Shown: piece after piece, positions 5,997 through 18,306 of the stretch | How positions within the stretch are numbered: position 1 is the stretch's first letter | Layout of the letters: the number at the start of each line of letters is the position of its first letter | Assembly (NCBI GenBank): GCA_023475035.1 | Contig: JAMCXF010000006.1 | Coordinates: forward strand, 1 to 41,434 | Length of the DNA: 41,434 nucleotides | Direction: 5' to 3' | Source of the DNA: Candidatus Pacearchaeota archaeon | GTDB taxonomy: Archaea > Nanobdellota > Nanobdellia > Pacearchaeales > GW2011-AR1 | The notes under the pieces: model-generated | Databases searched by the model: none | What the model was told of the DNA's origin: nothing | Seen by the model: the letters and a program-made list of their open reading frames with translations, nothing else | Translations under genes and position numbers: made by a program

Positions 5997-6944
5997 CTAA
6001 TTTGATTCTAATTCATTAATCAGAGAATCAGCATCTATGAGTTCAATTCCTCCGATTATAAACTCAGGAGTGTTGAACATTTTATTGTTTCTCATTGCGC
6101 CGTGAAAAATCATTTCTTTTCCAAGAAGATTTTCTTTTTGCACCATTAGTTCGCTTGGATTTTCCAGTTCAGTGATTCCCAAATCTTTTAGATTGTCGTG
6201 AAAGGATACAGCTCTTATTGTTTCTGTTCCGTCATCAAGAATCACATTCATTAATGCTCTTTTTTCTCCTGCAACTTTCCCGTGTTCAGCACAGGTAAAA
6301 TTTCCATTTTCCTGAATTGCTTTTTTCCTGCAGGTAGGGCATACATAAAAAAATCTCGGCTCAAAAGACTGGACAACAAAAGCTCTGACTTTCGCATTGT
6401 CTAAATTTTTCAGTTCAGAAATTTTTTTCATTCTGAAAACTTTTTCATTATTGACTTCTCCAATTACAGCATTTGTTATTTTAAGTTCAGAAAAGCTCCC
6501 TAAATGTAATTCGTTTTCTCTCATTGCACCATTCACAATTTCAACAACAATACCTTCCCCTATTTTCCCCGTCTCAAGAAGAGAGATGTGATTTGTGTCC
6601 CACAAAACAACTTTTATGTTTGAAGTATCATCAGCAATGAATAAATTTGCAACTTTTCCGTCATCGCCTTTTTTCGTCTTGAATGTTCTTACAGGAGAAG
6701 TTCCCATTATCTTTCCTACAGTATTCACCTTTCTCATTCCGGGAAGAAGTTCTTCTATTTTCAGTGTTTCATTGTCAAAAGATATTCCAAGTTCTGCAGC
6801 TACAACCTGTGCTGCCCCTTCTCTGCTGATTAATCCTGAAAGTTTTGCTCGTTTAGCCTCGATTCTTCTTTCAATCTCATCTTTTTCAACCCCTGCTTTT
6901 TTAGAAATCTTTTCGACAATCCTGTCATAATTTTCCACCACCAT
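5997..6944 (-). CDS. replication protein A-like ssDNA-binding protein (OB folds + Zn ribbon)
   Basis: N-terminal helical module (ISKKAGVEKDEIERRIEAKRAKLSGLISREGAAQVVAAELGI), two OB-fold-like segments, and the Zn ribbon CPTCRKK...FTCAEHGK. This is typical of archaeal RPA/RFA. Confidence 0.7.
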   Translation of the reverse strand: MVVENYDRIVEKISKKAGVEKDEIERRIEAKRAKLSGLISREGAAQVVAAELGISFDNETLKIEELLPGMRKVNTVGKIMGTSPVRTFKTKKGDDGKVANLFIADDTSNIKVVLWDTNHISLLETGKIGEGIVVEIVNGAMRENELHLGSFSELKITNAVIGEVNNEKVFRMKKISELKNLDNAKVRAFVVQSFEPRFFYVCPTCRKKAIQENGNFTCAEHGKVAGEKRALMNVILDDGTETIRAVSFHDNLKDLGITELENPSELMVQKENLLGKEMIFHGAMRNNKMFNTPEFIIGGIELIDADSLINELESN

Positions 6945-7003
6945 TTCAAGAAAAAATTATCAATGTTTTTAAGTATTTTCGTGGAAAGGAATATGATTAC
7001 TAA

Positions 7004-7711: not shown

Positions 7712-8362
7712 ATGCTCTCAGAAGAAGAAACAGAAGAGATAAAGAAAAAAATTACTTCTCACATAGAAACTAATTTTCCTCCTGAACAGATTTTGTCTGC
7801 AAGAAGTCAGATTGAATCAATGAATTCTGAACAGCTTGAAAAATTTCTTGAAAAGAATAATATAATGATGTCTGACGAGAAAAAAGATGAATGTGTTTTC
7901 TGCGCAATTGCTTCAGGAAAAATAGGCTCTGTAAAAATAGGGGAAAATGAAAAGGCAATTGCAGTCCTTGACATAAACCCAATTTCAAAAGGGCATTCTA
8001 TGGTAATTCCGTTCGAGCATAATGACGTCGCTCCAAAAGAAGCAATGAGTCTTGCAGAAAAAATTTCCAAGGAGATAAAGAAAAAATTTTCACCGAAGAA
8101 TGTGGAATTTTCAAAATCAAAATTATTCGGGCATGAAGTTATAAATATACTTCCGGTTTACAAAGATGAAGATTTTAATTCAGAAAAATCGCATGCAAGT
8201 ATGGAAGAACTTGAAAAAATAAAAGAGGAATTAGAAAAAGAAGAAAAAGAGGAAGAAGAAAACAGCCGTGAGCAGAATTTTAAAGGGAAGTTTACAAAAG
8301 AAACCGATAAGGTGTCTTTTGAAGAAGAGAAATTTTTATGGTTGCCAAAAAGAATTCCATAA
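7712..8362 (+). CDS. HIT-superfamily-like protein with a degenerate histidine triad, an N-terminal extension and a Glu/Lys-rich tail
   Basis: CVFCAIASGKI and NPISKGHSMVIPFEH match the HIT fold. Where H-x-H-x-H-x-x is expected, the sequence is GHEVINIL, so only the first His is retained. Confidence 0.65.
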   Translation: MLSEEETEEIKKKITSHIETNFPPEQILSARSQIESMNSEQLEKFLEKNNIMMSDEKKDECVFCAIASGKIGSVKIGENEKAIAVLDINPISKGHSMVIPFEHNDVAPKEAMSLAEKISKEIKKKFSPKNVEFSKSKLFGHEVINILPVYKDEDFNSEKSHASMEELEKIKEELEKEEKEEEENSREQNFKGKFTKETDKVSFEEEKFLWLPKRIP

Positions 8363-9181
8363 ACTAATTTGCAGAATTTCGAAAATAATAAAAATAATAA
8401 GGCTTATCAGGAAAACAGGAGAAAAAGGAATTCCTTCTCTTATTCTCACTTCCTTGAATTTCCCCATTATTTCTTTTATCTCTCTTTTTGTTACCCCATC
8501 CCATTTTGCTTTTATCATTTTCTTTCCAATTTTCAAATCAGAATAAAGCCAGTCTCCCTCGCGAAGATTTTTTGTTTTTATTTTTCTGATTATGCACGTT
8601 TCATCAACTGCCTTTGAATATATGTAAAGATAAGAGACAATAAAAATCATTACTCCAAGCACTAAGAATAATTTTTCAAAAAATCCTATGATAACAAGAA
8701 TGATGCTTGCAAGAATAATCAGACACATTATTTTTTTATTTTTCCTTAGCAGAACAAAAAATTCTTTTTTGAAAGCTCTGAAATTTTTGGCGCATAAATA
8801 AATGCTTGTTATTATAGTGTATAAAAATCCTACCGACAGGAATATCAAAATAAAATTAAAAAAGGAAGAAAAAATTGCAGACATCATCGGAGGAGCGAGA
8901 ACTGCTCCCAGTCCAATCATTAATTTGGCATCACCGCCTGCAAAAACTCTCGAATAATAAAGAACATTCCCCAAAACAAAAAATACCCCAAAACCAATAA
9001 GCCCGCTGTAAAAAAATTCAAAATCCGCATTAAATAATGAAAAGAAAAATCTGAACCCTAATGCAAATATTATAAGTGCGAAACTAATCCAGTTATCAAT
9101 TTCTTTTGTTTTCAAATCCTGTATTACAGCGAATACAATAAATAGTAATCCCAGAAGCCATAAAAAAATCACCTCATACAT
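8336..9181 (-). CDS. A24-family prepilin/preflagellin peptidase (PibD/FlaK-like)
   Basis: Polytopic membrane protein with two Asp motifs: AVIQDLKTKEIDNW and VFAGGDAKLMIGLG (GxGDxK-like). A soluble insert plus terminal TM follows, as in archaeal A24 peptidases. It is the last gene of the pilin operon. Confidence 0.8.
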   Translation of the reverse strand: MYEVIFLWLLGLLFIVFAVIQDLKTKEIDNWISFALIIFALGFRFFFSLFNADFEFFYSGLIGFGVFFVLGNVLYYSRVFAGGDAKLMIGLGAVLAPPMMSAIFSSFFNFILIFLSVGFLYTIITSIYLCAKNFRAFKKEFFVLLRKNKKIMCLIILASIILVIIGFFEKLFLVLGVMIFIVSYLYIYSKAVDETCIIRKIKTKNLREGDWLYSDLKIGKKMIKAKWDGVTKREIKEIMGKFKEVRIREGIPFSPVFLISLIIFIIFEILQISLWNSFWQP

Positions 9182-9328: not shown

Positions 9329-9787
9329 TTATTCAGCAGGTATTATGCAAATTTGTCCGTTAAGATTATTTGCTAAAGCGCTGACATCATATTTTGATGC
9401 TGTTCCAGTTGGAGCTAATATTGCTGCTTTGTCGTCTATTAATATTGACTCGCAGGATAAATCACAATTTATTGCTGAACATTTTTGTATTGTGTATTGC
9501 GTAAGCTGAGGAGAGTTTGCTAAAACTGCACAGCTTGTCTTTACTGAAAAGTCTTCTTCGTTAACTCTCAAAGTTCTTTCAGCAGAACAAAAAGCGAATT
9601 TCTGACTTAAACTGCAGGCACTTGCGCATTCCTCAACAGTCGAATCAACATTTGTAGGGCTGATAATATTTTTGAAAAAACTCCATCCTGTAGAAAATCC
9701 TAAAATTAAAACAACTAAAATTACTAATCCAAGTATAAGAAGAATAATTGTATTAGTGCTTAACTCTTGTCCTCTTTTATTTAACAT
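9329..9787 (-). CDS. pilin-like protein with class III signal peptide, Cys-rich ectodomain
   Basis: MLNKRG/QELSTNTIILLILGLVILVVLILGF has a basic n-region, Gly, then a hydrophobic helix. The remainder contains about 9 Cys. Confidence 0.6.
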   Translation of the reverse strand: MLNKRGQELSTNTIILLILGLVILVVLILGFSTGWSFFKNIISPTNVDSTVEECASACSLSQKFAFCSAERTLRVNEEDFSVKTSCAVLANSPQLTQYTIQKCSAINCDLSCESILIDDKAAILAPTGTASKYDVSALANNLNGQICIIPAE

Positions 9788-9826
9788 ATTTAGATTACGA
9801 TTATTTTATTTAAAAATGTTTTTGTA

Positions 9827-10153
9827 TTAAGGAGACTGATAATTTACCGAAAACAAAAGAACTTCTTTGCTCCAGAATAAAAAACCCTCTGTCATATTTT
9901 TTCTAAGATGCAATCCGTCAGGACTTTCTCCGTTGAAAATTTTTTCTTCTGCCTGCATGTTTATCTCATTGACCATTCCTATTCCCACAAAAGAATTTCT
10001 CGTCTGAACCATTGAATTAAAAAAACTGAACATTGCAATTCCACAGATTACTATTACTCCGATTACAAGAATTGTTATGGGTATATCTCCCGAGCGATTT
10101 CGCGGAAAGAGGGTCAGTGTCATGCGAGCGGGGTCGCGAGTAGTTTTATTCAT
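9827..10153 (-). CDS. pilin-like protein with long conserved leader (MNKTTRDPARMTLTLFPRNRSG/DIPITILVIGVIV...)
   Basis: ATG at 10153 overlaps the upstream stop (ATGAATAA). The leader is encoded by GC-rich repeat copy A and is followed directly by a hydrophobic helix. Confidence 0.6.
   Translation of the reverse strand: MNKTTRDPARMTLTLFPRNRSGDIPITILVIGVIVICGIAMFSFFNSMVQTRNSFVGIGMVNEINMQAEEKIFNGESPDGLHLRKNMTEGFLFWSKEVLLFSVNYQSP
10087..10141 (-). repeat. 55-nt GC-rich direct repeat, copy A
   Basis: ctcccgagcgatttcgcggaaagagggtcagtgtcatgcgagCggggtcgcgagt. It is identical to 11312..11366 except at position 10129 (C versus T). 35 of 55 positions are G/C by manual count, in a visibly AT-rich window. 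Confidence 0.95.
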
Positions 10154-10418
10154 TATTCGCTTCCTCCAGAATATTGTCAATGATTTCTTTGTTTAAATTT
10201 CCTGCAAGCTGATGGCTGAATGAAGTTTTTTGATTTAATGATTCTGTCTTTTCAGCAACATCAAATTGAATGCTTAAGGTTTGAATAATTTTTGTCTTTG
10301 AAATTAAGATTGAGATGTAAATAAAAACAATCAAAATTCCGATAATAATTATTGTTGCAATTATCCATGAAACTGTTTCACCAATCTGCCCTTTCTTGTC
10401 TGATTTAGATCTTAACAT
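10146..10418 (-). CDS. small pilin-like protein (class III signal peptide)
   Basis: MLRSKSDKKG/QIGETVSWIIATIIIIGILIVFIYI. It overlaps both neighbours (14 nt and 8 nt). Confidence 0.55.
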   Translation of the reverse strand: MLRSKSDKKGQIGETVSWIIATIIIIGILIVFIYISILISKTKIIQTLSIQFDVAEKTESLNQKTSFSHQLAGNLNKEIIDNILEEANNE

Positions 10419-10932
10419 TTTTTTCTGATTTCCTCACTACTGATAAAATTTTTATTATATATTGATTGTTAAGATTGTCGAGGGAATAAAAACTTTTTTC
10501 AACGCATTGTGCAACTCGTTCCTCTTCCTTGTTTTCTTGCAGTTCACAGCTAAGAAGCCATTTGTTATTTCCTTTTTTTAAATTAAAAACAGCAGAATCC
10601 AAATTATTTATGGTGTAAAAATTAACTTCAGTATAATATTGTTCTTCTTCCCATTCATCTGAGGAATTAAAATTGAGGTGGCATCCTTCAAGAAAATTTT
10701 GTTCTGCTCTGAATTCGCCGTTGGAGATTAAATTTCCGTTCATTTTTCCTGCATAAGAAATGCAGTCAGCAATTTGGTTTATCAAAAGATTTGCTTCAAT
10801 TTCTCTTATGTCATACGGACTTCCGTAAAAAATGTAAACCATTGCAAAAATTCCCCCTGCTACAATTATCAAAATCGCAAACCAGTATATTGAAACTACT
10901 TTATCGCCTCGTTTATCTTTTTTTATTCCCAT
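10405..10932 (-). CDS. pilin-like protein (class III signal peptide)
   Basis: MGIKKDKRG/DKVVSIYWFAILIIVAGGIFAMVYIF. Its start overlaps the upstream stop as TAATG. Confidence 0.55.
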   Translation of the reverse strand: MGIKKDKRGDKVVSIYWFAILIIVAGGIFAMVYIFYGSPYDIREIEANLLINQIADCISYAGKMNGNLISNGEFRAEQNFLEGCHLNFNSSDEWEEEQYYTEVNFYTINNLDSAVFNLKKGNNKWLLSCELQENKEEERVAQCVEKSFYSLDNLNNQYIIKILSVVRKSEKNVKI

Positions 10933-11381
10933 TATCTATATCCGTTTATTTTAATTACATAATTATTTTCAGGGAAGATATCAGGATAAGCAGTAACATC
11001 AACATCGTTAAAAAAAGAATATTCATATCCGCCTTTCTCGCTTAATCGGACTGTCACAATATTTCTGTCGCTGTCAATTTTCACAATATCTTCTCTTTGC
11101 AGCCCGTTTTTTTCAGCGAGGACAAAACCTTCTTTCATGTTCAGTATCATTTCTGTCACAGGTTTTGAAGAATCAATTAATAGTGCAATATTTTTTGCAT
11201 AACTTTGCTCAAGAACAATTGCTCCGCTTCCCTGCCTGAATAAAAAAAGCATAAGTATTGAAATAAAAAGAATATTCAGAATAAGAAATATTATATTTTC
11301 AACAAGAAGAACTCCCGAGCGATTTCGCGGAAAGAGGGTCAGTGTCATGCGAGTGGGGTCGCGAGTTCGTTTATTTTTCAT
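10932..11381 (-). CDS. pilin-like protein with long conserved leader (MKNKRTRDPTRMTLTLFPRNRSG/VLLVENIIFLIL...)
   Basis: I prefer the ATG at 11381, which avoids overlap with the 11389 stop; the track start is 11414. The leader is encoded by repeat copy B. The predicted mature N-terminus VLLVE has Glu at +5. Confidence 0.6.
   Translation of the reverse strand: MKNKRTRDPTRMTLTLFPRNRSGVLLVENIIFLILNILFISILMLFLFRQGSGAIVLEQSYAKNIALLIDSSKPVTEMILNMKEGFVLAEKNGLQREDIVKIDSDRNIVTVRLSEKGGYEYSFFNDVDVTAYPDIFPENNYVIKINGYR
11312..11366 (-). repeat. 55-nt GC-rich direct repeat, copy B
   Basis: 54/55 identical to 10087..10141, in the same orientation and 1225 nt away. Confidence 0.95.
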
Positions 11382-11388
11382 TTTATTT

Positions 11389-12261
11389 TCATGCCAGAGT
11401 TTTAATTGATTCACAATTCAATAAATCATAATCATCAGTTGCAATTATTGAAGGTGTATAATATTGCTGTCCTGATTCTCCTATGACAGTTGTTCCTATG
11501 AAATGCCCGCCGACGCCTCCCACGACTGCAACAACGATTATTACTGGAATAGCAACTCCTGCAACTGCCAAGGCTAATGTTGCAATTCCTGCTCCTGCAG
11601 CAGCCCATTGCCCGACGCTGATTTTGCTGTATACTCCCATTGTAATTGAATAGTGCTTGTTGAAATCTATTTCTCCAAATGCAGATTGATTAGTCAGGAG
11701 TGTTTCTTCAATTGCCTGCGAATTTTTAAGTCCGTTTAAGTATTCAAGATAACTTTTGCCTTCTGAAATTTCTGTAGTAGCAAGATAGTTATAAAACGCA
11801 TTTTGTGAAATTTTATTGTCCTCGAAAATTTGGCCCATGCTGTCATCAAAAGTAATCTGCGAGCAGATAGAACAATAAAGCTTAGGCAAAAGTTCTTCTC
11901 CAAGATAATTGACTTTCCCTTCGCCGAACATCCACCAGCAGTCAGCCATTTCATTTGCCAGTATGTCATAAGTTTCAGTGTCACTGGTAACTTTTTTCAC
12001 ATCAAAACTCCCGCTCATTTTTTCACAGCTTCCGTCTTCAGTAAAACATAAATAACTTGTCTTACAGTTCAACGGAATTGATTCTCCTGGAACAACATTG
12101 CTTCCTCTCGTAAGAACAGAATTATGGCAAACTTCTTTTTCAGTTGTCGCTCCAAGATTTAATCGGAATATAAAAAATAAAACAACTGCAAAACTTGCAA
12201 TTAGAATTATAAGTAATACTATTTGCTGTGTTGTGATGTCCCCTTTTTTATTGTTGATCAT
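11389..12261 (-). CDS. large pilin-like protein with an additional C-terminal Gly/Ala-rich hydrophobic segment
   Basis: Internal start MINNKKG/DITTQQIVLLIILIASFAVVLFFIF at 12261, with GGAG 5-8 nt upstream; the track start at 12327 adds a Cys-rich, unlikely extension. The ectodomain is Cys-rich. The C-terminus carries WAAAGAGIATLALAVAGVAIPVIIVVAVVGGVGG. Confidence 0.55.
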   Translation of the reverse strand: MINNKKGDITTQQIVLLIILIASFAVVLFFIFRLNLGATTEKEVCHNSVLTRGSNVVPGESIPLNCKTSYLCFTEDGSCEKMSGSFDVKKVTSDTETYDILANEMADCWWMFGEGKVNYLGEELLPKLYCSICSQITFDDSMGQIFEDNKISQNAFYNYLATTEISEGKSYLEYLNGLKNSQAIEETLLTNQSAFGEIDFNKHYSITMGVYSKISVGQWAAAGAGIATLALAVAGVAIPVIIVVAVVGGVGGHFIGTTVIGESGQQYYTPSIIATDDYDLLNCESIKTLA

Positions 12262-12407
12262 AAAACTCCTATTTGCTTTAGCACAAAGTATAATCCTGCA
12301 AGAGCCAAAATAAAGAAAGCAATCCAAATTATATATTTTATTATTTCATCAAGGCTCATTACGCAAAAACCTCCTGTTTTTGTGTTTGTGGCAAATTTCC
12401 TGTTTAC

Positions 12408-12950
12408 TCATTTTTTCGTTATTTGTATTTGTTCATTTATTTTTTGAATTAAAATCTGCACTCCTGTTTTTTCAATTCTTATTTTTTCAAATTTGGCAAG
12501 ATTCGGAATATTTGTGCATACACCTTTGTCTTCGCATCTTTTTAATTGCCAGTCAAAAAATTCAAGAAGAGTTCTTTCGCAAATACATAAGCAGTTTTCA
12601 TCGAGACAGGAATTTGGTTTTGGTTCTTCTCCAACATAACTAAAGAGAAGCCATTCAGAGGGATTTGGTATTAAAATTCCCTCGCTGCTGTATTCTCCCC
12701 CGCTGTTTATTCTTTCAACTTCAGGAACAATGAGGTTTTTAATGCTTGCATCAGCTTCTTTAAGTTTCTGTTCGCCTGTGACATTAAAATAAATTGCAAC
12801 TAAAAGATAAACCAGAAAGACAATGCAAATTACAGCAATTATTACTTTTAATGTTTCTTCCCCTAATAAAAATCCTCTGCGATTTTTTGGAAAAAAATTG
12901 CAAAGAGAAAAACTCTTGTTTTGACCTTTTTTGTTTTTAGTAATTTTCAT
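12408..12950 (-). CDS. pilin-like protein with long leader (…CNFFPKNRRG/FLLGEETLKVIIAVICIVFLVYLL)
   Basis: The leader motif FPKNRRG parallels FPRNRSG of the two repeat-bearing genes. The predicted mature N-terminus FLLGE has Phe+1 and Glu+5, as in bacterial type IV pilins. Confidence 0.6.
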   Translation of the reverse strand: MKITKNKKGQNKSFSLCNFFPKNRRGFLLGEETLKVIIAVICIVFLVYLLVAIYFNVTGEQKLKEADASIKNLIVPEVERINSGGEYSSEGILIPNPSEWLLFSYVGEEPKPNSCLDENCLCICERTLLEFFDWQLKRCEDKGVCTNIPNLAKFEKIRIEKTGVQILIQKINEQIQITKK

Positions 12951-13105
12951 CTTATTAAAACTCCAAATATCTCAGGAGGAGAAAATCCCCTAAAAAATTC
13001 TAGGATTTGTTCCTTGAAGAAAAAATAAAGCCCAACAGCAACTGCTACAACTACAAGAATTCCCAAAATTATTTTTATCAATTGTTCTGTTGTTAATTCT
13101 GCCAT
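12947..13105 (-). CDS. 52-aa single-TM mini-protein (not in ORF track)
   Basis: My translation is MAELTTEQLIKIILGILVVVAVAVGLYFFFKEQILEFFRGFSPPEIFGVLIR. Its stop overlaps the next ATG (ATGA) and its start overlaps the previous stop (TAATG). Confidence 0.4.
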   Translation of the reverse strand: MAELTTEQLIKIILGILVVVAVAVGLYFFFKEQILEFFRGFSPPEIFGVLIR

Positions 13106-13254
13106 TATCTTCCTCCAAAAATTTCTTTTATTCTGTCAATGAATTCAAATCCTTTTCCTCTTAACAAAAAAATGCTAATCATTATTATCGCAAGAATTAT
13201 CAATCCAATCAAAAGCCACGGAAGATATTCGGAAATCACACCTTTTTTTTTCAT
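13105..13254 (-). CDS. 49-aa pilin-like mini-protein (not in ORF track)
   Basis: My translation is MKKKG/VISEYLPWLLIGLIILAIIMISIFLLRGKGFEFIDRIKEIFGGR. It has a class III-like KKKG followed by a hydrophobic helix, and is the first gene after a TATA-like box. Confidence 0.4.
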   Translation of the reverse strand: MKKKGVISEYLPWLLIGLIILAIIMISIFLLRGKGFEFIDRIKEIFGGR

Positions 13255-13289: not shown

Positions 13290-15446
13290 TTAACTCAAGT
13301 TTCCAAGCACAATTGATGTCAGGAAGAATAATGCAAGAACAGACAAAGTTGCAGTTACAGCATAAAGTCCTATTCCGGCTTTCAGATTTAATCCTGTCTT
13401 GTTTGTTCTTTCAAGTTTGTCTTCTCCCGAATCAATTATAACAAGAGCACTCGTAAGGATAAATATTATTTCAATAATATAAATTCCGATTATTATCTGA
13501 AGCAGATAAGGAGGAATCATTTTAGTCATGTCAAAAATATTTAATATTGCATTAAGATTGCCAACTCCTGCAATTGCCTCTGCTCCTCCAGCCTGAGCGA
13601 TATTTAATTTGCTTAAAATTCCAGTTATCATCGCTGCAAGTCCTATTACAACCCCTGATAATAATGGCGCAAGGAAAGTCATGTTGCTTTTCATGTCAGA
13701 AATAATTTCTGCAAGCATGTCTCTTAATCTATCAGTGATTTTGTTTATGTTTTTGACATACTCTGAAATGCTTATCAAACTTAATGCTGCAATGTTCAAT
13801 CCTTTCTTTGCGGATTCAACAAGAATTCTCATGCTCGTTGCAATTAATTCAGAAGGATAATATGCGATTGCTCCTCTCTTCTCGTCGAAGATTGCAGTTT
13901 CAACAGACATTCCCATTTGCATGACGTTGTAATTAACTCTTCTGAAAAAGTCTTCTGTTTTCAGTCCTTTGGTTGCTTCTGCAACTTTGCTGAATGCAAG
14001 TTCAGGAGGAACTCCGTTTCCGATTCTGTTTCCAAGCTGGAATAAAGAATTGTTAAATTCAACTTCAAGCTGTTTTGTTTTTTCTCTTTCCTTGATTAAT
14101 CCTTTTGTTTTATTTTTGAATGCTATTGCAAAAAATAATGCAACACCTACTGTGAAAAAAATTCCGAATATCAAAGCGCCAATTCCAAAAGGCCCTGCTA
14201 AATTTCCTCCTATGTCTATAAAACCAAAAAAAGATTCGCTTCCAAAAAAGCTCAATCCAAGTTCATCAAATGTGTAATCATTTTTTAATCCGATTGCAGG
14301 AGCAAGTGGCGACTGGAAAAATAAAGGTAAAAGCCCGATGACAAAAAAAGGAATGCAAATTAAGAAAGCATTTAGATAATGTTTCTTGTCTTTGTAAACA
14401 GGATAAAGAGGATTTCTTTCAATGAGTTCTGTTTCTCCGTATCCTCCTGGTCTCAGGGATAAAACTTTGTCAGTAAGATAGAAAACAAAAAAAGGAATTA
14501 TCAAATTAAATAAAATCATAACGTGATACCATTTTAAGAAATCTCCAACCATTGCTGAAGCAAGAGGAAGAAGAGCAAGTCCCAAAGTTGGAAGGACAAC
14601 TCCAAGCATGTAAACATTTGTCAAAGGACTTCTTACTTCATGAGTGAATTTAAGCATCTTGTCGTAAACTCCGTCAAGAACTACCTGCAATGCTTTTTCC
14701 AAAGTAACAACTCTTTTTCCGTCGTCAGGTTCAAACAGACTGCTTTCAATCAGATGAAAAGATTCAATAAATTCTGTGGAGTAATCTCTCCATATTTCTA
14801 GATAGTTATCAAGACTTTCTTTTATCGTGGAAAATTTCCCCAATTCAACATCATAAAAAACTTTTTTGAAATCAAGCGCAAGAGGATATTGAAGATGCTG
14901 TGAAGCAAAAGAAATTGCTCTTTCCAAGTTAGGGGTATGTCTCATATAAACGACAATGTACAAAATCGCAGGAACCATTTGTGATGATGCTTTCAGTCGC
15001 CATCTGTTCGCAAGCCTTTGAGGATATCCGTTGATAAAATAAAAAAGAAATAATCCTGCAAACATTAAAAGAACAAAAAAGAAAATAGGAAACTCCTGAG
15101 TGAAAAGCATTATTGCTACAGAAAGCAAAAGCCCAGCGAGGAAAACTCCGAAAAAAGAAACCATTGCAAGATTTATTGGCTGCCAAGGTTCCAAATCAAC
15201 ATGCGCAATTTCAAGATATCTTTGAACCTTTGCCTGTTCTTTTTGCGAAATCTTAAGTTTGATAATTCCTCCAAGGCTTCTGCACCATTTTTCATATCTT
15301 GTAAGTTCAGGAGCAAGTTCTTCCTTGAATGTCGAATAACTCTGGCTGTAATTTACTTTCTCAATATCCTGCGTAGTTTTTATGCTCTGTTCAATTCGGG
15401 CAGCATGTTTCTTGAGAATATCATCAATGTTGGGTCTTCCGTCCAT
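13290..15446 (-). CDS. polytopic membrane protein, probable FlaJ/TadC/PilC-like pilus assembly platform
   Basis: 718 aa with a cytoplasmic N-terminal domain, then two blocks of multiple TM helices separated by soluble segments. It sits between the secretion ATPase and the pilin genes. Family membership is inferred from architecture and context, not from a recognised signature. Confidence 0.6.
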   Translation of the reverse strand: MDGRPNIDDILKKHAARIEQSIKTTQDIEKVNYSQSYSTFKEELAPELTRYEKWCRSLGGIIKLKISQKEQAKVQRYLEIAHVDLEPWQPINLAMVSFFGVFLAGLLLSVAIMLFTQEFPIFFFVLLMFAGLFLFYFINGYPQRLANRWRLKASSQMVPAILYIVVYMRHTPNLERAISFASQHLQYPLALDFKKVFYDVELGKFSTIKESLDNYLEIWRDYSTEFIESFHLIESSLFEPDDGKRVVTLEKALQVVLDGVYDKMLKFTHEVRSPLTNVYMLGVVLPTLGLALLPLASAMVGDFLKWYHVMILFNLIIPFFVFYLTDKVLSLRPGGYGETELIERNPLYPVYKDKKHYLNAFLICIPFFVIGLLPLFFQSPLAPAIGLKNDYTFDELGLSFFGSESFFGFIDIGGNLAGPFGIGALIFGIFFTVGVALFFAIAFKNKTKGLIKEREKTKQLEVEFNNSLFQLGNRIGNGVPPELAFSKVAEATKGLKTEDFFRRVNYNVMQMGMSVETAIFDEKRGAIAYYPSELIATSMRILVESAKKGLNIAALSLISISEYVKNINKITDRLRDMLAEIISDMKSNMTFLAPLLSGVVIGLAAMITGILSKLNIAQAGGAEAIAGVGNLNAILNIFDMTKMIPPYLLQIIIGIYIIEIIFILTSALVIIDSGEDKLERTNKTGLNLKAGIGLYAVTATLSVLALFFLTSIVLGNLS

Positions 15447-15499
15447 AATTCACCTCAGTATGTTAAATAGGAATATAATTATAAATGTTTTTAGAAAAA

Positions 15500-15988
15500 T
15501 TATTTTTTATTTTTTCCTCTCAAATAAATAAATGCAAAAAATGAACCGCAAAGAAAAAAACATATAGCAAGCCATTTTGTGTCTGCTACCCCAATATTTC
15601 CGACAGCATTCCCTGTCAGATTAGAGGACACAAAAAAAAGGGCAAGAGTAAGTGCAAAGACTGAAGAAAATCCTAAAAATTTTTTTTCAAGTCCACCTTT
15701 AATTCTTTCAAGTCCATGAAGAAGTTTTTTACGTTCTGCAGTTATGCTTGCACGCTCTTTTTCAATCTCTTTTATTTCTTCGCCCCCCAAATATCTTCGG
15801 GCATGTTTAAGAGCATTATCATAAGCCATTTCAGCTTTCGGAAGATTTTTTGTGCGGTTCCAATATTCTCCAGCTTTTCTCCAGGATTCAATTATTTTGG
15901 CAGGAGATTTTCGCGCTCCCTTCATTTCTTCATAATGAGCTTCAGATTCGTACTGTTTTGCCTTTTTTGAATATACGTCTTCAACCAT
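15500..15988 (-). CDS. hypothetical membrane-anchored protein (helical N-domain, two C-terminal TM helices)
   Basis: Open frame between the ATPase and platform genes on the same strand. No motif recognised. Confidence 0.5.
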   Translation of the reverse strand: MVEDVYSKKAKQYESEAHYEEMKGARKSPAKIIESWRKAGEYWNRTKNLPKAEMAYDNALKHARRYLGGEEIKEIEKERASITAERKKLLHGLERIKGGLEKKFLGFSSVFALTLALFFVSSNLTGNAVGNIGVADTKWLAICFFLCGSFFAFIYLRGKNKK

Positions 15989-16023
15989 GATTAATTAAAT
16001 AAGAATAACTTTAAATAATTTAT

Positions 16024-18306
16024 CTAAAACTTTTTTGTCTTTACTTCATTGTTTAACCATTTCTGCCACTCAGGGAAAACTCTTTCTCCGAGAGGCAATC
16101 CGATTTCCTGTCTTACTTTGTCAGATATTTCATGAAACACGTGATTGGATAATGTGTTAAATCCCGATTCTAAAATTTTGCTGTATCCAGTTTTTTTTGC
16201 AACGTTTACTATTTCCTGTTTTATTTTTCCTCTTAATAAAATATTATCATAAATAGCATCCCAGTTTCCAGCCCATCCTTTTACATTAGACGCAACGCTC
16301 TTGATAACCTCGCTGTCTCCGTTAATCAAATCAGAGCTCGGTTCTAGTTCATCTTTTTCAATGTTATAATTAAGCAAATCAACAAATCCTTTTTCTAATT
16401 GGGGGTCTTGTTTCCAGTGCTTCCTGACTTCAGAAACTTGCACGACTCTTTTTATTGAATGAAGTCCGTCAGCAGTTTTTATTGGATTGCATACGACGAT
16501 TAAATCTGTTGCCTTGAAACTCGTTGCTGGAACTTCCAAATCATTTACAACTCTGTCAAAAACTCCGTAAGGAGAAGCTCCGTGAATTGTTCCTGCAACA
16601 ACATTTGCCAATGCTCCAACTCGCATTGCTTCATAAAGAGCTTTCGCCTCAACACTTCTTACTTCACCGATGATTAAACATGAATCACCAAGTCTCAAAC
16701 TGGTTCTTATTCCGTCGTCAGCAGAAACTTCTGTTGTCGTTTTCAAAAGTGCAGAACGGACTTTCATTCTCAAAATATCATATTCTAATTTTCTCAGAGA
16801 TTCAACAGGAAGTTCAAGAGAGTCTTCAATTACAATAATTCTGTTTTTAGGAATAATTTCAAGCATCAGGCTTCCGAGAAGAGAAGTTTTACCTGAGCTT
16901 CTCGTTCCGGCAACTAAAAGAGTTCTTGCTCCGTCGATTAAAAAGCTAAGAAGTCCTGCAGTGAAAGAATTCAACATTCTGTTATTTACATAAAGAGGAA
17001 GTGTCCATGGCTCTTCTCTGTGTCGTCGTATTGCATACGCAAGTCCGTCAGGCGAAAGAGGATTTTGAATGATAGCAATTCTCGCTCTTAACTTCCCGAT
17101 TTCCAATTGAGTATCAAGAATAGGATTCGCTTCATCCAATGGCCTTCCTGAAATCATTCTGAATTTTGCAGCCCACGAGTCAATATCTGACTGGCTTGGA
17201 AGAATATTAGTCTTGCATTCATCATAGTCTTGATGCCTGACATAAATGTTTGTCATCGGAATAGGCGCGTTCAGCATTATATCCTGTAATTTTTTATCCT
17301 GAAGAATTACTTCAACAAGCCCAAACCCGATTGTCTGCCTGACAAGTATCGTCGCAAGTTTGTTCAGGTCAGCATAATTAAGTTTTATTCTCTGTGTCTG
17401 CGACAAATCCTGAAGCAAGTCTTTTGCAATGTTAAAAAAAACATTTCTTATTCTTTCCACATCAGTAAATTCTTCGGCTTTCGGCTGGTGTTCAATCAAG
17501 ACTCCTCTCGCAAGATTCAGAAGAATATTGTAATCTTCGTCAAGAGAATTTTCAGGGGGATTGATGTGATAAATTAATTTTGATTCATCTTTTCTTTTTA
17601 AAATTGTGACTGTTGAAGTATCAAAATCTTCTCCGACAGTGTATTGGTCAATAATCTCCGCGTCCGCAGGTATGTCATAAACTAATCTCGTAAAAGTAAA
17701 ATTTGGAATTACATCTGGTTTCAGAATTTTGTCATAAATTGTTCTGTCTCCTTTTTTGTATCCTTCAAAGTAAGGAATAAGCTTTTGTATTATTGAAGTG
17801 TTTTCAAGAAGCGACAAAATTTTTTCAAGAAGGTGAATATAATTTTCTATGTCATTTCTGTATTGCTGTTCTGCCCTGTCAAAAAGAATTTTTGTTTGAA
17901 TAATAATTTTTTTGATTTCAAAATATGCAGAAACAGGATCTTGCCTTAGTAAAAATAAGAAAGAAAAAATTTCATTATATCTTTGATTAAAATAAGGGCC
18001 GTTATTCGAAGTAAGTTTTTCATGCGACAAAATTTTTTCCTGTCTCAAAAGATAAACATAAAGATGCGCGATTTCAAGGAGGAGCATCGTTTCCTGATTG
18101 TCATAATTGTAATTTTTCTGCTGTGCAAAAATAATTCTTGAAACTCCCGGATTTTCAATTAGCGCATCAATCGTTCTCGACATCACTTCAGGATAATCAG
18201 CAAGGCTGGGAACAAAAGGAGCCCCAAGATAATTGATATGAAGAACATCTTCTCCTCCTTCTCTTCTTACTTCATAAGAATATAATTTCTCCTCTTTAGA
18301 TGGCAT
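16024..18306 (-). CDS. type II/IV secretion-family ATPase (FlaI/PilB/VirB11-like) with a long N-terminal region
   Basis: Walker A (LLVAGTRSSGKTSLLG), Walker B (RIIVIEDSLEL), IIGEVRSVEAKALYEAMRVG, and a His-box-like AGTIHGASP. 760 aa. Confidence 0.9.
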   Translation of the reverse strand: MPSKEEKLYSYEVRREGGEDVLHINYLGAPFVPSLADYPEVMSRTIDALIENPGVSRIIFAQQKNYNYDNQETMLLLEIAHLYVYLLRQEKILSHEKLTSNNGPYFNQRYNEIFSFLFLLRQDPVSAYFEIKKIIIQTKILFDRAEQQYRNDIENYIHLLEKILSLLENTSIIQKLIPYFEGYKKGDRTIYDKILKPDVIPNFTFTRLVYDIPADAEIIDQYTVGEDFDTSTVTILKRKDESKLIYHINPPENSLDEDYNILLNLARGVLIEHQPKAEEFTDVERIRNVFFNIAKDLLQDLSQTQRIKLNYADLNKLATILVRQTIGFGLVEVILQDKKLQDIMLNAPIPMTNIYVRHQDYDECKTNILPSQSDIDSWAAKFRMISGRPLDEANPILDTQLEIGKLRARIAIIQNPLSPDGLAYAIRRHREEPWTLPLYVNNRMLNSFTAGLLSFLIDGARTLLVAGTRSSGKTSLLGSLMLEIIPKNRIIVIEDSLELPVESLRKLEYDILRMKVRSALLKTTTEVSADDGIRTSLRLGDSCLIIGEVRSVEAKALYEAMRVGALANVVAGTIHGASPYGVFDRVVNDLEVPATSFKATDLIVVCNPIKTADGLHSIKRVVQVSEVRKHWKQDPQLEKGFVDLLNYNIEKDELEPSSDLINGDSEVIKSVASNVKGWAGNWDAIYDNILLRGKIKQEIVNVAKKTGYSKILESGFNTLSNHVFHEISDKVRQEIGLPLGERVFPEWQKWLNNEVKTKKF

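Follow-up and report, generated by a model that had tools for sequence, protein, structure and literature searches.

The GC clusters of yeast (Saccharomyces) mitochondria are mobile sequences of 30-80 bp, which form tandem arrays, occur as optional inserts inside rps3/VAR1 and have been reported to be associated with recombination (PMC4464245). [quoted passage not shown] In this study, we analyzed a stretch of 41,434 nucleotides (nt) of Candidatus Pacearchaeota archaeon (assembly GCA_023475035.1, contig JAMCXF010000006.1, positions 1 to 41,434), hereafter called the window, focusing on a GC-rich direct repeat located in the leaders of two of its pilin-like genes. This pair probably represents two insertions of a dispersed, coding-compatible, GC/CpG-rich selfish repeat of 51 nt belonging to Nanoarchaeia (Pacearchaeota, Woesearchaeota and related DPANN), of which no prior description was found in a limited literature search and whose closest analogues appear to be the yeast mitochondrial GC clusters and the Rickettsia palindromic elements. 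The genomes of DPANN archaea are tiny and densely packed with genes, leaving little room between them, and a repeat that can be read in frame and that gathers in a peptide bound for removal would illustrate how selfish DNA persists under the constraint of a small genome.

A preliminary description of this DNA, made from the sequence alone, had reported a 55-nt direct repeat with an Ala/Thr change that ends at the cleavage Gly, and sequence search confirmed it. The copies at 10087-10141 and 11312-11366, both within minus-strand genes, lie 1225 nt apart and differ at 1 of 55 positions, where 0 such repeats are expected by chance. The mismatch, GCT to ACT, changes Ala to Thr, and the encoded stretch, TRDP(A/T)RMTLTLFPRNRSG, ends at the Gly before the hydrophobic helix. 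With 35/55 and 34/55 G+C, the copies form the two top peaks among the 55-mers of the window (mean 18.4, standard deviation 4.2), whose overall G+C content is 33%, and 8 CpG are present within the 51-nt element compared with 19 per kb across the window. The codons of the repeat that had been singled out as atypical are infrequent among the window genes, CGC and CGA accounting for 3% and 5% of Arg codons, CCC and CCG for 7% and 13% of Pro codons, and CTG and CTC for 9% and 5% of Leu codons. The composition and codon usage of the element are foreign to the host. Comparison of the two host proteins by BLASTP revealed nothing past the Gly except compositional matches in the hydrophobic segment, in agreement with the lack of similarity noted earlier by eye.

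The 55-nt block was resolved into a 51-nt (17-codon) element, ACTCGCGACCCCGCTYG…CCGCGAAATCGCTCG, and four host bases, GGAG, which comprise the -1 Gly codon GGA and the G of the next codon (minus strand, 10087-10090 at copy 1 and 11312-11315 at copy 2). The GGAG happens to be common to both host genes by coincidence and stretches the block from 51 to 55 nt; its GG is invariant across the aligned filled and empty sites. Copy 1 (10091-10141, minus strand; ACTCGCGACCCCGCTCGCATGACACTGACCCTCTTTCCGCGAAATCGCTCG, encoding TRDPARMTLTLFPRNRS; nhmmer E=8e-17) separates codon 4 (Thr) of pilin-like gene 1 (9827-10153) from its -1 Gly codon, and for this gene filled and empty sites were aligned with orthologues from the loci L004, L005 and L007. 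Copy 2 (11316-11366, minus strand) lies between MKNKR and the -1 Gly codon of pilin-like gene 2 (10932-11381), and its excision in silico leaves the textbook leader MKNKRG↓VLLVEN (the arrow marks the predicted cleavage site). The sequences on either side of the two copies are different, and the same gene also contains the element in L001, a relative assembled independently, which argues against an assembly artefact.

Orthologues with and without the element were found for both genes. Ordinary short leaders, such as MMKNKKG↓DIS and MNKKA↓DIP, are present in 10 of 13 gene 1 relatives, while P0009 contains two tandem copies and P0005 an AT-rich type of unit. The gene 2 family comprises 778 representative clusters with leaders mostly of 5-10 residues (52 parsable N-termini among the top 150 matches). 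Its orthologues are empty in L003 (MKSKKG↓TILIEN), L004 (MTKRG↓TILIEN) and L007 (MKKG↓AILVEN), and that of L001 contains the AT-rich unit, designated type B below. In the DNA alignment, filled and empty genes differ by a block directly before the invariant Gly codon. Because orthologues of both genes have short leaders and removal of 51 nt restores such a leader, the element represents an insertion and not a shared ancestral leader. The preliminary description had read the sharp boundary and odd composition as signs of an event at the nucleotide level rather than ordinary paralogy, and this inference is borne out. In L001, the gene 1 orthologue contains two tandem copies with identical 5' ends, one of which is read as TRDPA and the other, in another frame, as SRPRS; this indicates conservation at the level of DNA and not of protein. 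Neither unit is singly a multiple of three, and their sum is 93 nt.

Three further observations were made among these orthologues. The gene 2 orthologue of L005 (5758-6213) has the leader MKKIKRGFFQKKNKKGSSNILLEN, which belongs to neither type of unit and has the appearance of either a K-rich leader that was duplicated or another short insert. In the gene 1 family alignment (A6), an Asn at position -4 (x-N-[KR]-x-G/A↓D) is invariant in 14/14 leaders and the element contributes the same -4 Asn (R-N-R-S-G); judging from this alignment, the residue may contribute to the motif that the peptidase of this lineage recognises. A run of N in L003 (about 6975-7000; from a 499-kb NCBI contig) falls exactly at the start of the gene 1 orthologue and could be an assembly break at a repeat.

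The DNA pattern CTCGCGACCCC-N(10-40)-CCGCGAAATCGC was used to scan 185,579 species genomes (one genome per species) and yielded 12 matches in metagenome-assembled genomes of DPANN (Pacearchaeota, Woesearchaeota and Nanoarchaeota), with four matches on three contigs of one genome and three matches on three contigs of another. Scanning of a metagenome collection provided further element loci, and an nhmmer profile recovered additional copies, more diverged and in tandem. The element is thereby known from at least 10 other genomes or metagenomes of Nanoarchaeia (Pacearchaeota and Woesearchaeota). Six pattern matches in contigs of 63-72% G+C were rejected as chance matches, and no match was obtained across 2.9 million viral contigs, giving no sign of a viral origin. 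Tandem arrays were found in L001, L013, L014 and L044. A peptide search with a tripled profile, which reported only four proteins at E≤10 and is not a census, added three pilin leaders and one non-pilin N-terminus, of which two leaders and the non-pilin case were confirmed in DNA; locus L043 held one further leader copy. In these additional leaders, too, the element immediately precedes the -1 Gly/Ala codon. The copies found by peptide carry variant 5' ends, such as ACTCGTGACTTCGC, that fall outside the DNA pattern.

Among the 26 distinct sites ascertained by DNA, 12 are pilin leaders, 7 lie in other genes and 7 are intergenic or unresolved, so that at least 19/26 are in coding sequence. All 12 pilin-leader sites share the same sense frame and place the element directly before the -1 Gly/Ala codon, and all seven sites in other genes are likewise in frame. 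The element is antisense in PheT beta (one site common to three genomes), in MnmA and in genes of 408 and 427 residues, all of which read it as GERFRG…AGSRVG, and it is antisense but read as SERFRG…ERGRE in a RadA-like gene; sense-orientation sites are found in a 309-residue gene (third frame) and in a 122-residue gene (a tandem pair). The alignment of MnmA to PDB 2der breaks at the element, where about 30 extra residues occur. In a sample of PheT orthologues collected by protein similarity, 59/61 have no insert at the corresponding β-hairpin and 2/61 have decayed remnants, which argues that the PheT element is derived and able to decay. The suggestion that the repeat is a leader cassette shared among pilins does not survive these data, in which the same element sits in PheT, MnmA and other genes and beside tRNA genes. 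A dispersed generic repeat unrelated to pilins, envisaged as the contrary outcome, describes it in its dispersal but not in its lack of relation to pilins, since 12 of the 26 sites are pilin leaders.

The element thus occurs in multiple dispersed copies whose presence varies between relatives. The window copies differ at 1/51 positions, as do the copies in two pilin genes on different contigs of RBG_19FT_COMBO_34_9, and copies from different genomes and different genes show as few as 2/51 differences. The near-identical pairs fit recent copying or homogenisation within genomes, and the similarity across genomes may indicate spread between lineages. When the sequences flanking 30 copies were compared, the sole consistent feature was a tendency for A to precede the element. 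Target-site duplication was absent from pilin and other coding sites; three copies that flank tRNA genes are enclosed, together with a spacer, by a duplicated stretch of 12 nt from the tRNA 3' end. These three copies (L017, 1647-1905; L012, 7776-7946; L022, about 6390-6650) belong to unrelated DPANN genomes, lie a short way downstream of a tRNA gene, in antisense orientation, and are directly followed by a second copy of the last ~12 nt of the tRNA (TCGGGGCCATTT, CTATCCGGGACG and CGGCGGGGGCAT). The arrangement (tRNA, spacer of 28-53 nt with its own palindrome, element, 12-nt repeat) resembles either the attL/attR sites of a very small integrated segment or a target duplication of 12 nt. No tRNA was found in the window by ARAGORN, and an origin from a tRNA or tRNA fragment was rejected, the T-arm likeness of GGGGTCGCGAGTTCG being limited to copy 2 and derived from flanking bases.

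The element consists of conserved 5' (ACTCGCGACCCCGCTYG) and 3' (CCGCGAAATCGCTCG) ends and a variable centre of about 20 nt, and each end contains CGCGAnnnCGCT, in direct and not inverted relation. Units of 45, 51 and 63 nt occur, the differences being multiples of three. Sense frame 1 is open in 24/24 standard units and three other frames are open in 22/24; at every intragenic site examined, the reading frame passes through the element with no stop. Units of the GC-rich kind, designated type A, average about 56% GC, and the two window copies reach about 61%. The element is not palindromic, and its fold energies as RNA or DNA on either strand match those of shuffled controls, with z-scores between -0.7 and +0.6. 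RNAalifold analysis of 22 copies identified only an invariant 3-bp hairpin with 0 compensatory changes, and Rfam gave no match at gathering thresholds or at E≤1. The GCG-AAAU-CGC hairpin noticed in the preliminary description is this invariant hairpin, present in all 22 copies and lacking covariation; in the helix proposed between CUCGCGA and UCGGGAG, the outer tested pair is broken in 15/22 copies and covarying pairs number 0.

Taken as a selfish or neutral repeat, the element would persist inside genes by having a length, singly or summed over a tandem array, that is a multiple of three and by leaving four of six frames usually free of stops. In pilin genes it would be translated in the sense frame as a leader extension (…TRDPA…PRNRS-G↓) whose last codons, R-N-R-S, imitate the native K-N-K-R motif, and cleavage after the Gly by the adjacent A24 prepilin peptidase would remove this extension and leave the mature pilin unaltered. 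The window pair probably arose by recent copying within the genome, either by transposition-like insertion or by gene conversion between copies. Among the options offered in the preliminary description, a recently acquired leader module comes closest to these findings as regards recent acquisition; the module itself is not specific to pilins.

The strict leader position could reflect target preference or selection. We tentatively consider, at somewhat less than an even chance, that the element belongs to a previously undescribed family of archaeal mobile elements adapted to coding sequence, for which the -2/-1 junction of class III signal peptides would be a genuinely preferred target. The cleaved and discarded part of the pilin would then serve as a safe harbour, and leaders would grow by repeated insertions of type A, type B and further units, up to 79 residues in L043. 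If true, no selfish element directed at a cleaved signal peptide would have been reported before.

The comparison with described systems shows both likenesses and differences. Like the yeast mitochondrial GC clusters, the element is a short GC-rich repeat in an AT-rich genome, occurs singly and in tandem, varies between strains and is optional in coding sequence, where it changes the size of the product. GC clusters are, however, palindromic, mostly intergenic and organellar, whereas the element is archaeal, has no hairpin beyond chance and lies mostly in coding sequence, and of the two only the element has a preferred, codon-exact position in signal peptides. Rickettsia palindromic elements likewise occur in frame in many unrelated genes and are translated with the host protein, apparently being tolerated (PMC10969869). 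They are about 100-150 bp long, palindromic and bacterial, whereas the element is 51 nt long, non-palindromic and archaeal, and roughly half of its copies fall within a peptide removed by cleavage. MITEs and repeats of the repetitive extragenic palindromic (REP) type share with it small size, multiple copies, a non-coding origin, variable presence and occasional in-frame fusions (PMC10969869). The host genes conform to archaeal class III (type IV pilin) signal peptides in that a short, basic leader ends with Gly/Ala at -1 and the hydrophobic helix begins at +1; the leaders described here differ in being longer by 17 foreign residues and in having Ser at -2 in place of Lys/Arg. The survey of archaeal type IV filaments that was checked makes no mention of leaders extended in this way.

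Several points weigh against a selfish, mobile repeat. Four open frames out of six are barely above expectation at 56% GC, for which about 0.5 per frame was estimated. The DNA pattern demanded intact ends, so the invariance of the ends is partly ascertainment; the same bias affects the sample in which copy divergence was measured, and the family is wider than the part sampled. Just two type A copies are visible for the source genome, which is represented by one 41-kb contig. As points of difference from MITEs, no terminal inverted repeats were found, no consistent target-site duplication was seen at coding sites and no partner transposase was identified in the 8-kb loci around the matches; nor was a target motif found at coding sites, and the case for mobility is accordingly drawn from distribution. 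Finally, the strict leader position and the mimicry of K-N-K-R-G could reflect selection for a functional leader extension and not neutrality.

On this last account, selection would maintain the 17 residues (…TRDPA…PRNRS) in DPANN pilins as a pro-peptide module, for instance one that adjusts processing or A24 peptidase recognition, and the module would spread between pilin genes by recombination, the copies elsewhere being accidental spill-over. It draws on the concentration of 12 of the 26 sites in pilin leaders, always at the same codon junction, on the resemblance of the 3' end of the element to the invariant x-N-[KR]-x-G of native leaders, on the FPxNRxG that type B retains at a constant position across four different pilin genes, and on the growth of L043 leaders by repeated additions. 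We regard it as unlikely, however, since the 5' half is conserved as DNA regardless of frame, near-identical copies (2/51 differences) are antisense inside PheT, most orthologues are without the element and its codon usage is foreign to the host.

Another explanation, proposed in the preliminary description, is recombination or gene conversion between leader cassettes, by which the repeat would let pilin genes swap or delete their mature domains. The 54/55 identity of direct repeats 1225 nt apart, the near-identical pair in two pilin genes of the second genome mentioned above and the reported association of yeast mitochondrial GC clusters with recombination (PMC4464245) are all compatible with it. 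Five syntenic relatives nevertheless have the same order and content of genes between the two copies whether the element is present or absent, and hybrid genes were not seen. The element also lies in housekeeping genes that exist as single copies, for which an exchange of this kind would be meaningless. We therefore consider domain swapping quite improbable; recombination between the two copies of the window may occur, but none was observed.

In a bulge-helix-bulge, a 4-bp helix formed across the junctions lies between two 3-nt bulges, and neither length nor frame is constrained. Removal or skipping of the element at the RNA level, as such an intron of the mRNA or as a bypass element comparable to the yeast mitochondrial 'byps', would give a mature protein without the 17 residues. 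The conserved ends and variable centre, the textbook leader obtained by precise excision (MKNKRG↓V…), the GC-rich island in an AT-rich genome, the ability of a structure-recognised element to act in either orientation and the precedent of the GC-cluster-derived 'byps' (PMC4464245) speak for such a mechanism. It is very improbable in view of the frames that stay open with no stop at every intragenic site examined, including the non-triplet units that sum to 93 nt, the lack of bulge-helix-bulge-like or other conserved pairing, and the lack of an Rfam match even with permissive thresholds. Bulge-helix-bulge pairing was absent from both single-sequence and consensus folds, and an intron of this kind was rejected, the best hand-built candidate (GCGA:UCGC) having irregular loops and relying on flanks that differ between sites. 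Hardly credible, finally, is the suggestion of a structured or protein-bound cis-regulatory RNA coordinating translation of the two pilin genes, which has in its favour the GC-rich position at the 5' ends of two neighbouring genes and the small invariant hairpin, but against it fold energies equal to those of shuffled sequences, no covariation in 22 copies, a proposed outer helix broken in most of them, and many copies antisense to the host gene, with one count giving at least six of the seven sites in other genes as antisense, or deep inside long genes.

The window copies belong to an archaeal type IV pilus locus on the minus strand in which an A24 peptidase, an assembly ATPase and a membrane platform protein all lie together. 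The prepilin (class III signal) peptidase (8336-9181; Peptidase_A24, Pfam PF01478, E=4.9e-13) is accompanied by a run of nine pilin-like genes (9329-13254) with class III-type leaders and hydrophobic N-termini, namely 13105-13254, 12947-13105, 12408-12950, 11389-12261, 10932-11381, 10405-10932, 10146-10418, 9827-10153 and 9329-9787. Three pilus assembly genes (13290-18306) encode a polytopic membrane protein of 718 residues without Pfam match (13290-15446), a 162-residue open reading frame (15500-15988) and a T2SSE-type ATPase (16024-18306; Pfam PF00437, E=4.3e-14). The same pilus gene order is found in six relatives (L001 and L003-L007). All nine pilin-like genes and their orthologues have a short basic leader ending in Gly/Ala followed by a hydrophobic helix, and none of the seven pilin-like proteins tested scored above the curated cut-off of a Pfam pilin model. 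Gene 1 encodes 108 residues, with a leader, cleavage Gly22 and then DIPITILVIGVIVICGIAMF…, and gene 2 encodes 149 residues with the mature N-terminus VLLVENIIFLILNILFISIL. The AlphaFold model of gene 1 shows a helix from residue 23 and an unstructured leader, with low confidence (predicted local distance difference test score, pLDDT, 58).

The gene 1 protein P0001 (locus tag M1416_00435) was annotated by NCBI from an ATG inside the element and begins with MTLTLFPRNRSG. The candidate starts are this internal ATG (10121-10123) and an upstream ATG (10151-10153). Since the upstream ATG is preceded by a Shine-Dalgarno-like GGAGG, as among empty orthologues, and matches their start, the deposited start is probably 10 codons too short. 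The element thus misleads gene callers; it also inflates the apparent diversity of leaders and could defeat predictors of class III signal peptides. It can serve as a marker for strain-level variation and as a natural experiment on the tolerance of archaeal prepilin peptidase upstream of its cut site.

An AT-rich 51-nt unit, type B, is located at 12876-12926 (minus strand; GGTCAAAAC…AAAAATCGCAGA, encoding GQNKSFSLCNFFPKNRR) in the pilin-like gene 12408-12950, at the same -2/-1 leader position as type A. The L001 orthologue of this gene is empty (MNKRA↓FLLGEE). Type B was also found in another two pilin genes, one of L001 and one of L004, and, as peptide only, in P0005 (other loci: L001, 4798-4850; L004, 7347-7400; L019, 2077-2119), with 85-90% identity among four different pilin genes. 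It has only the 3' part (…AAATCGC…GG) in common with type A and folds into two small hairpins (z = -1.7). In the relative L043 (3370-6210), the corresponding operon encodes several pilins with greatly lengthened leaders, the longest of which, at 79 residues, ends in …ICDPARLSLTLIPRNRRG↓DKILSVYWF, and further repeated units, NEFAHSF… and PPKEEK.YSQT, are common to two genes. These repeats suggest additional insert families, and the leader junction appears, from the inserts collected there, to be a general insertion hot spot.

Two further sequences were recorded near copies of the element at other loci. The PheT gene of L011 contains a second, unrelated GC-rich in-frame insert, GGGGGGTGGGGCGGGCGGGGCGCGATAGGCTCAGAC, read as GGWGGRGAIGSD, about 250 nt upstream of the element in the gene sense, which is absent from the PheT genes of L015 and L031. 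In L038 (about 640-720) and L039 (about 1990-2060), which derive from one metagenome, another hairpin repeat of about 40 nt, AGTGGGTTCTTTTRAAAAAAGAACCTAACATGGTAGAAAAC, sits 60-110 nt upstream of the element copies.

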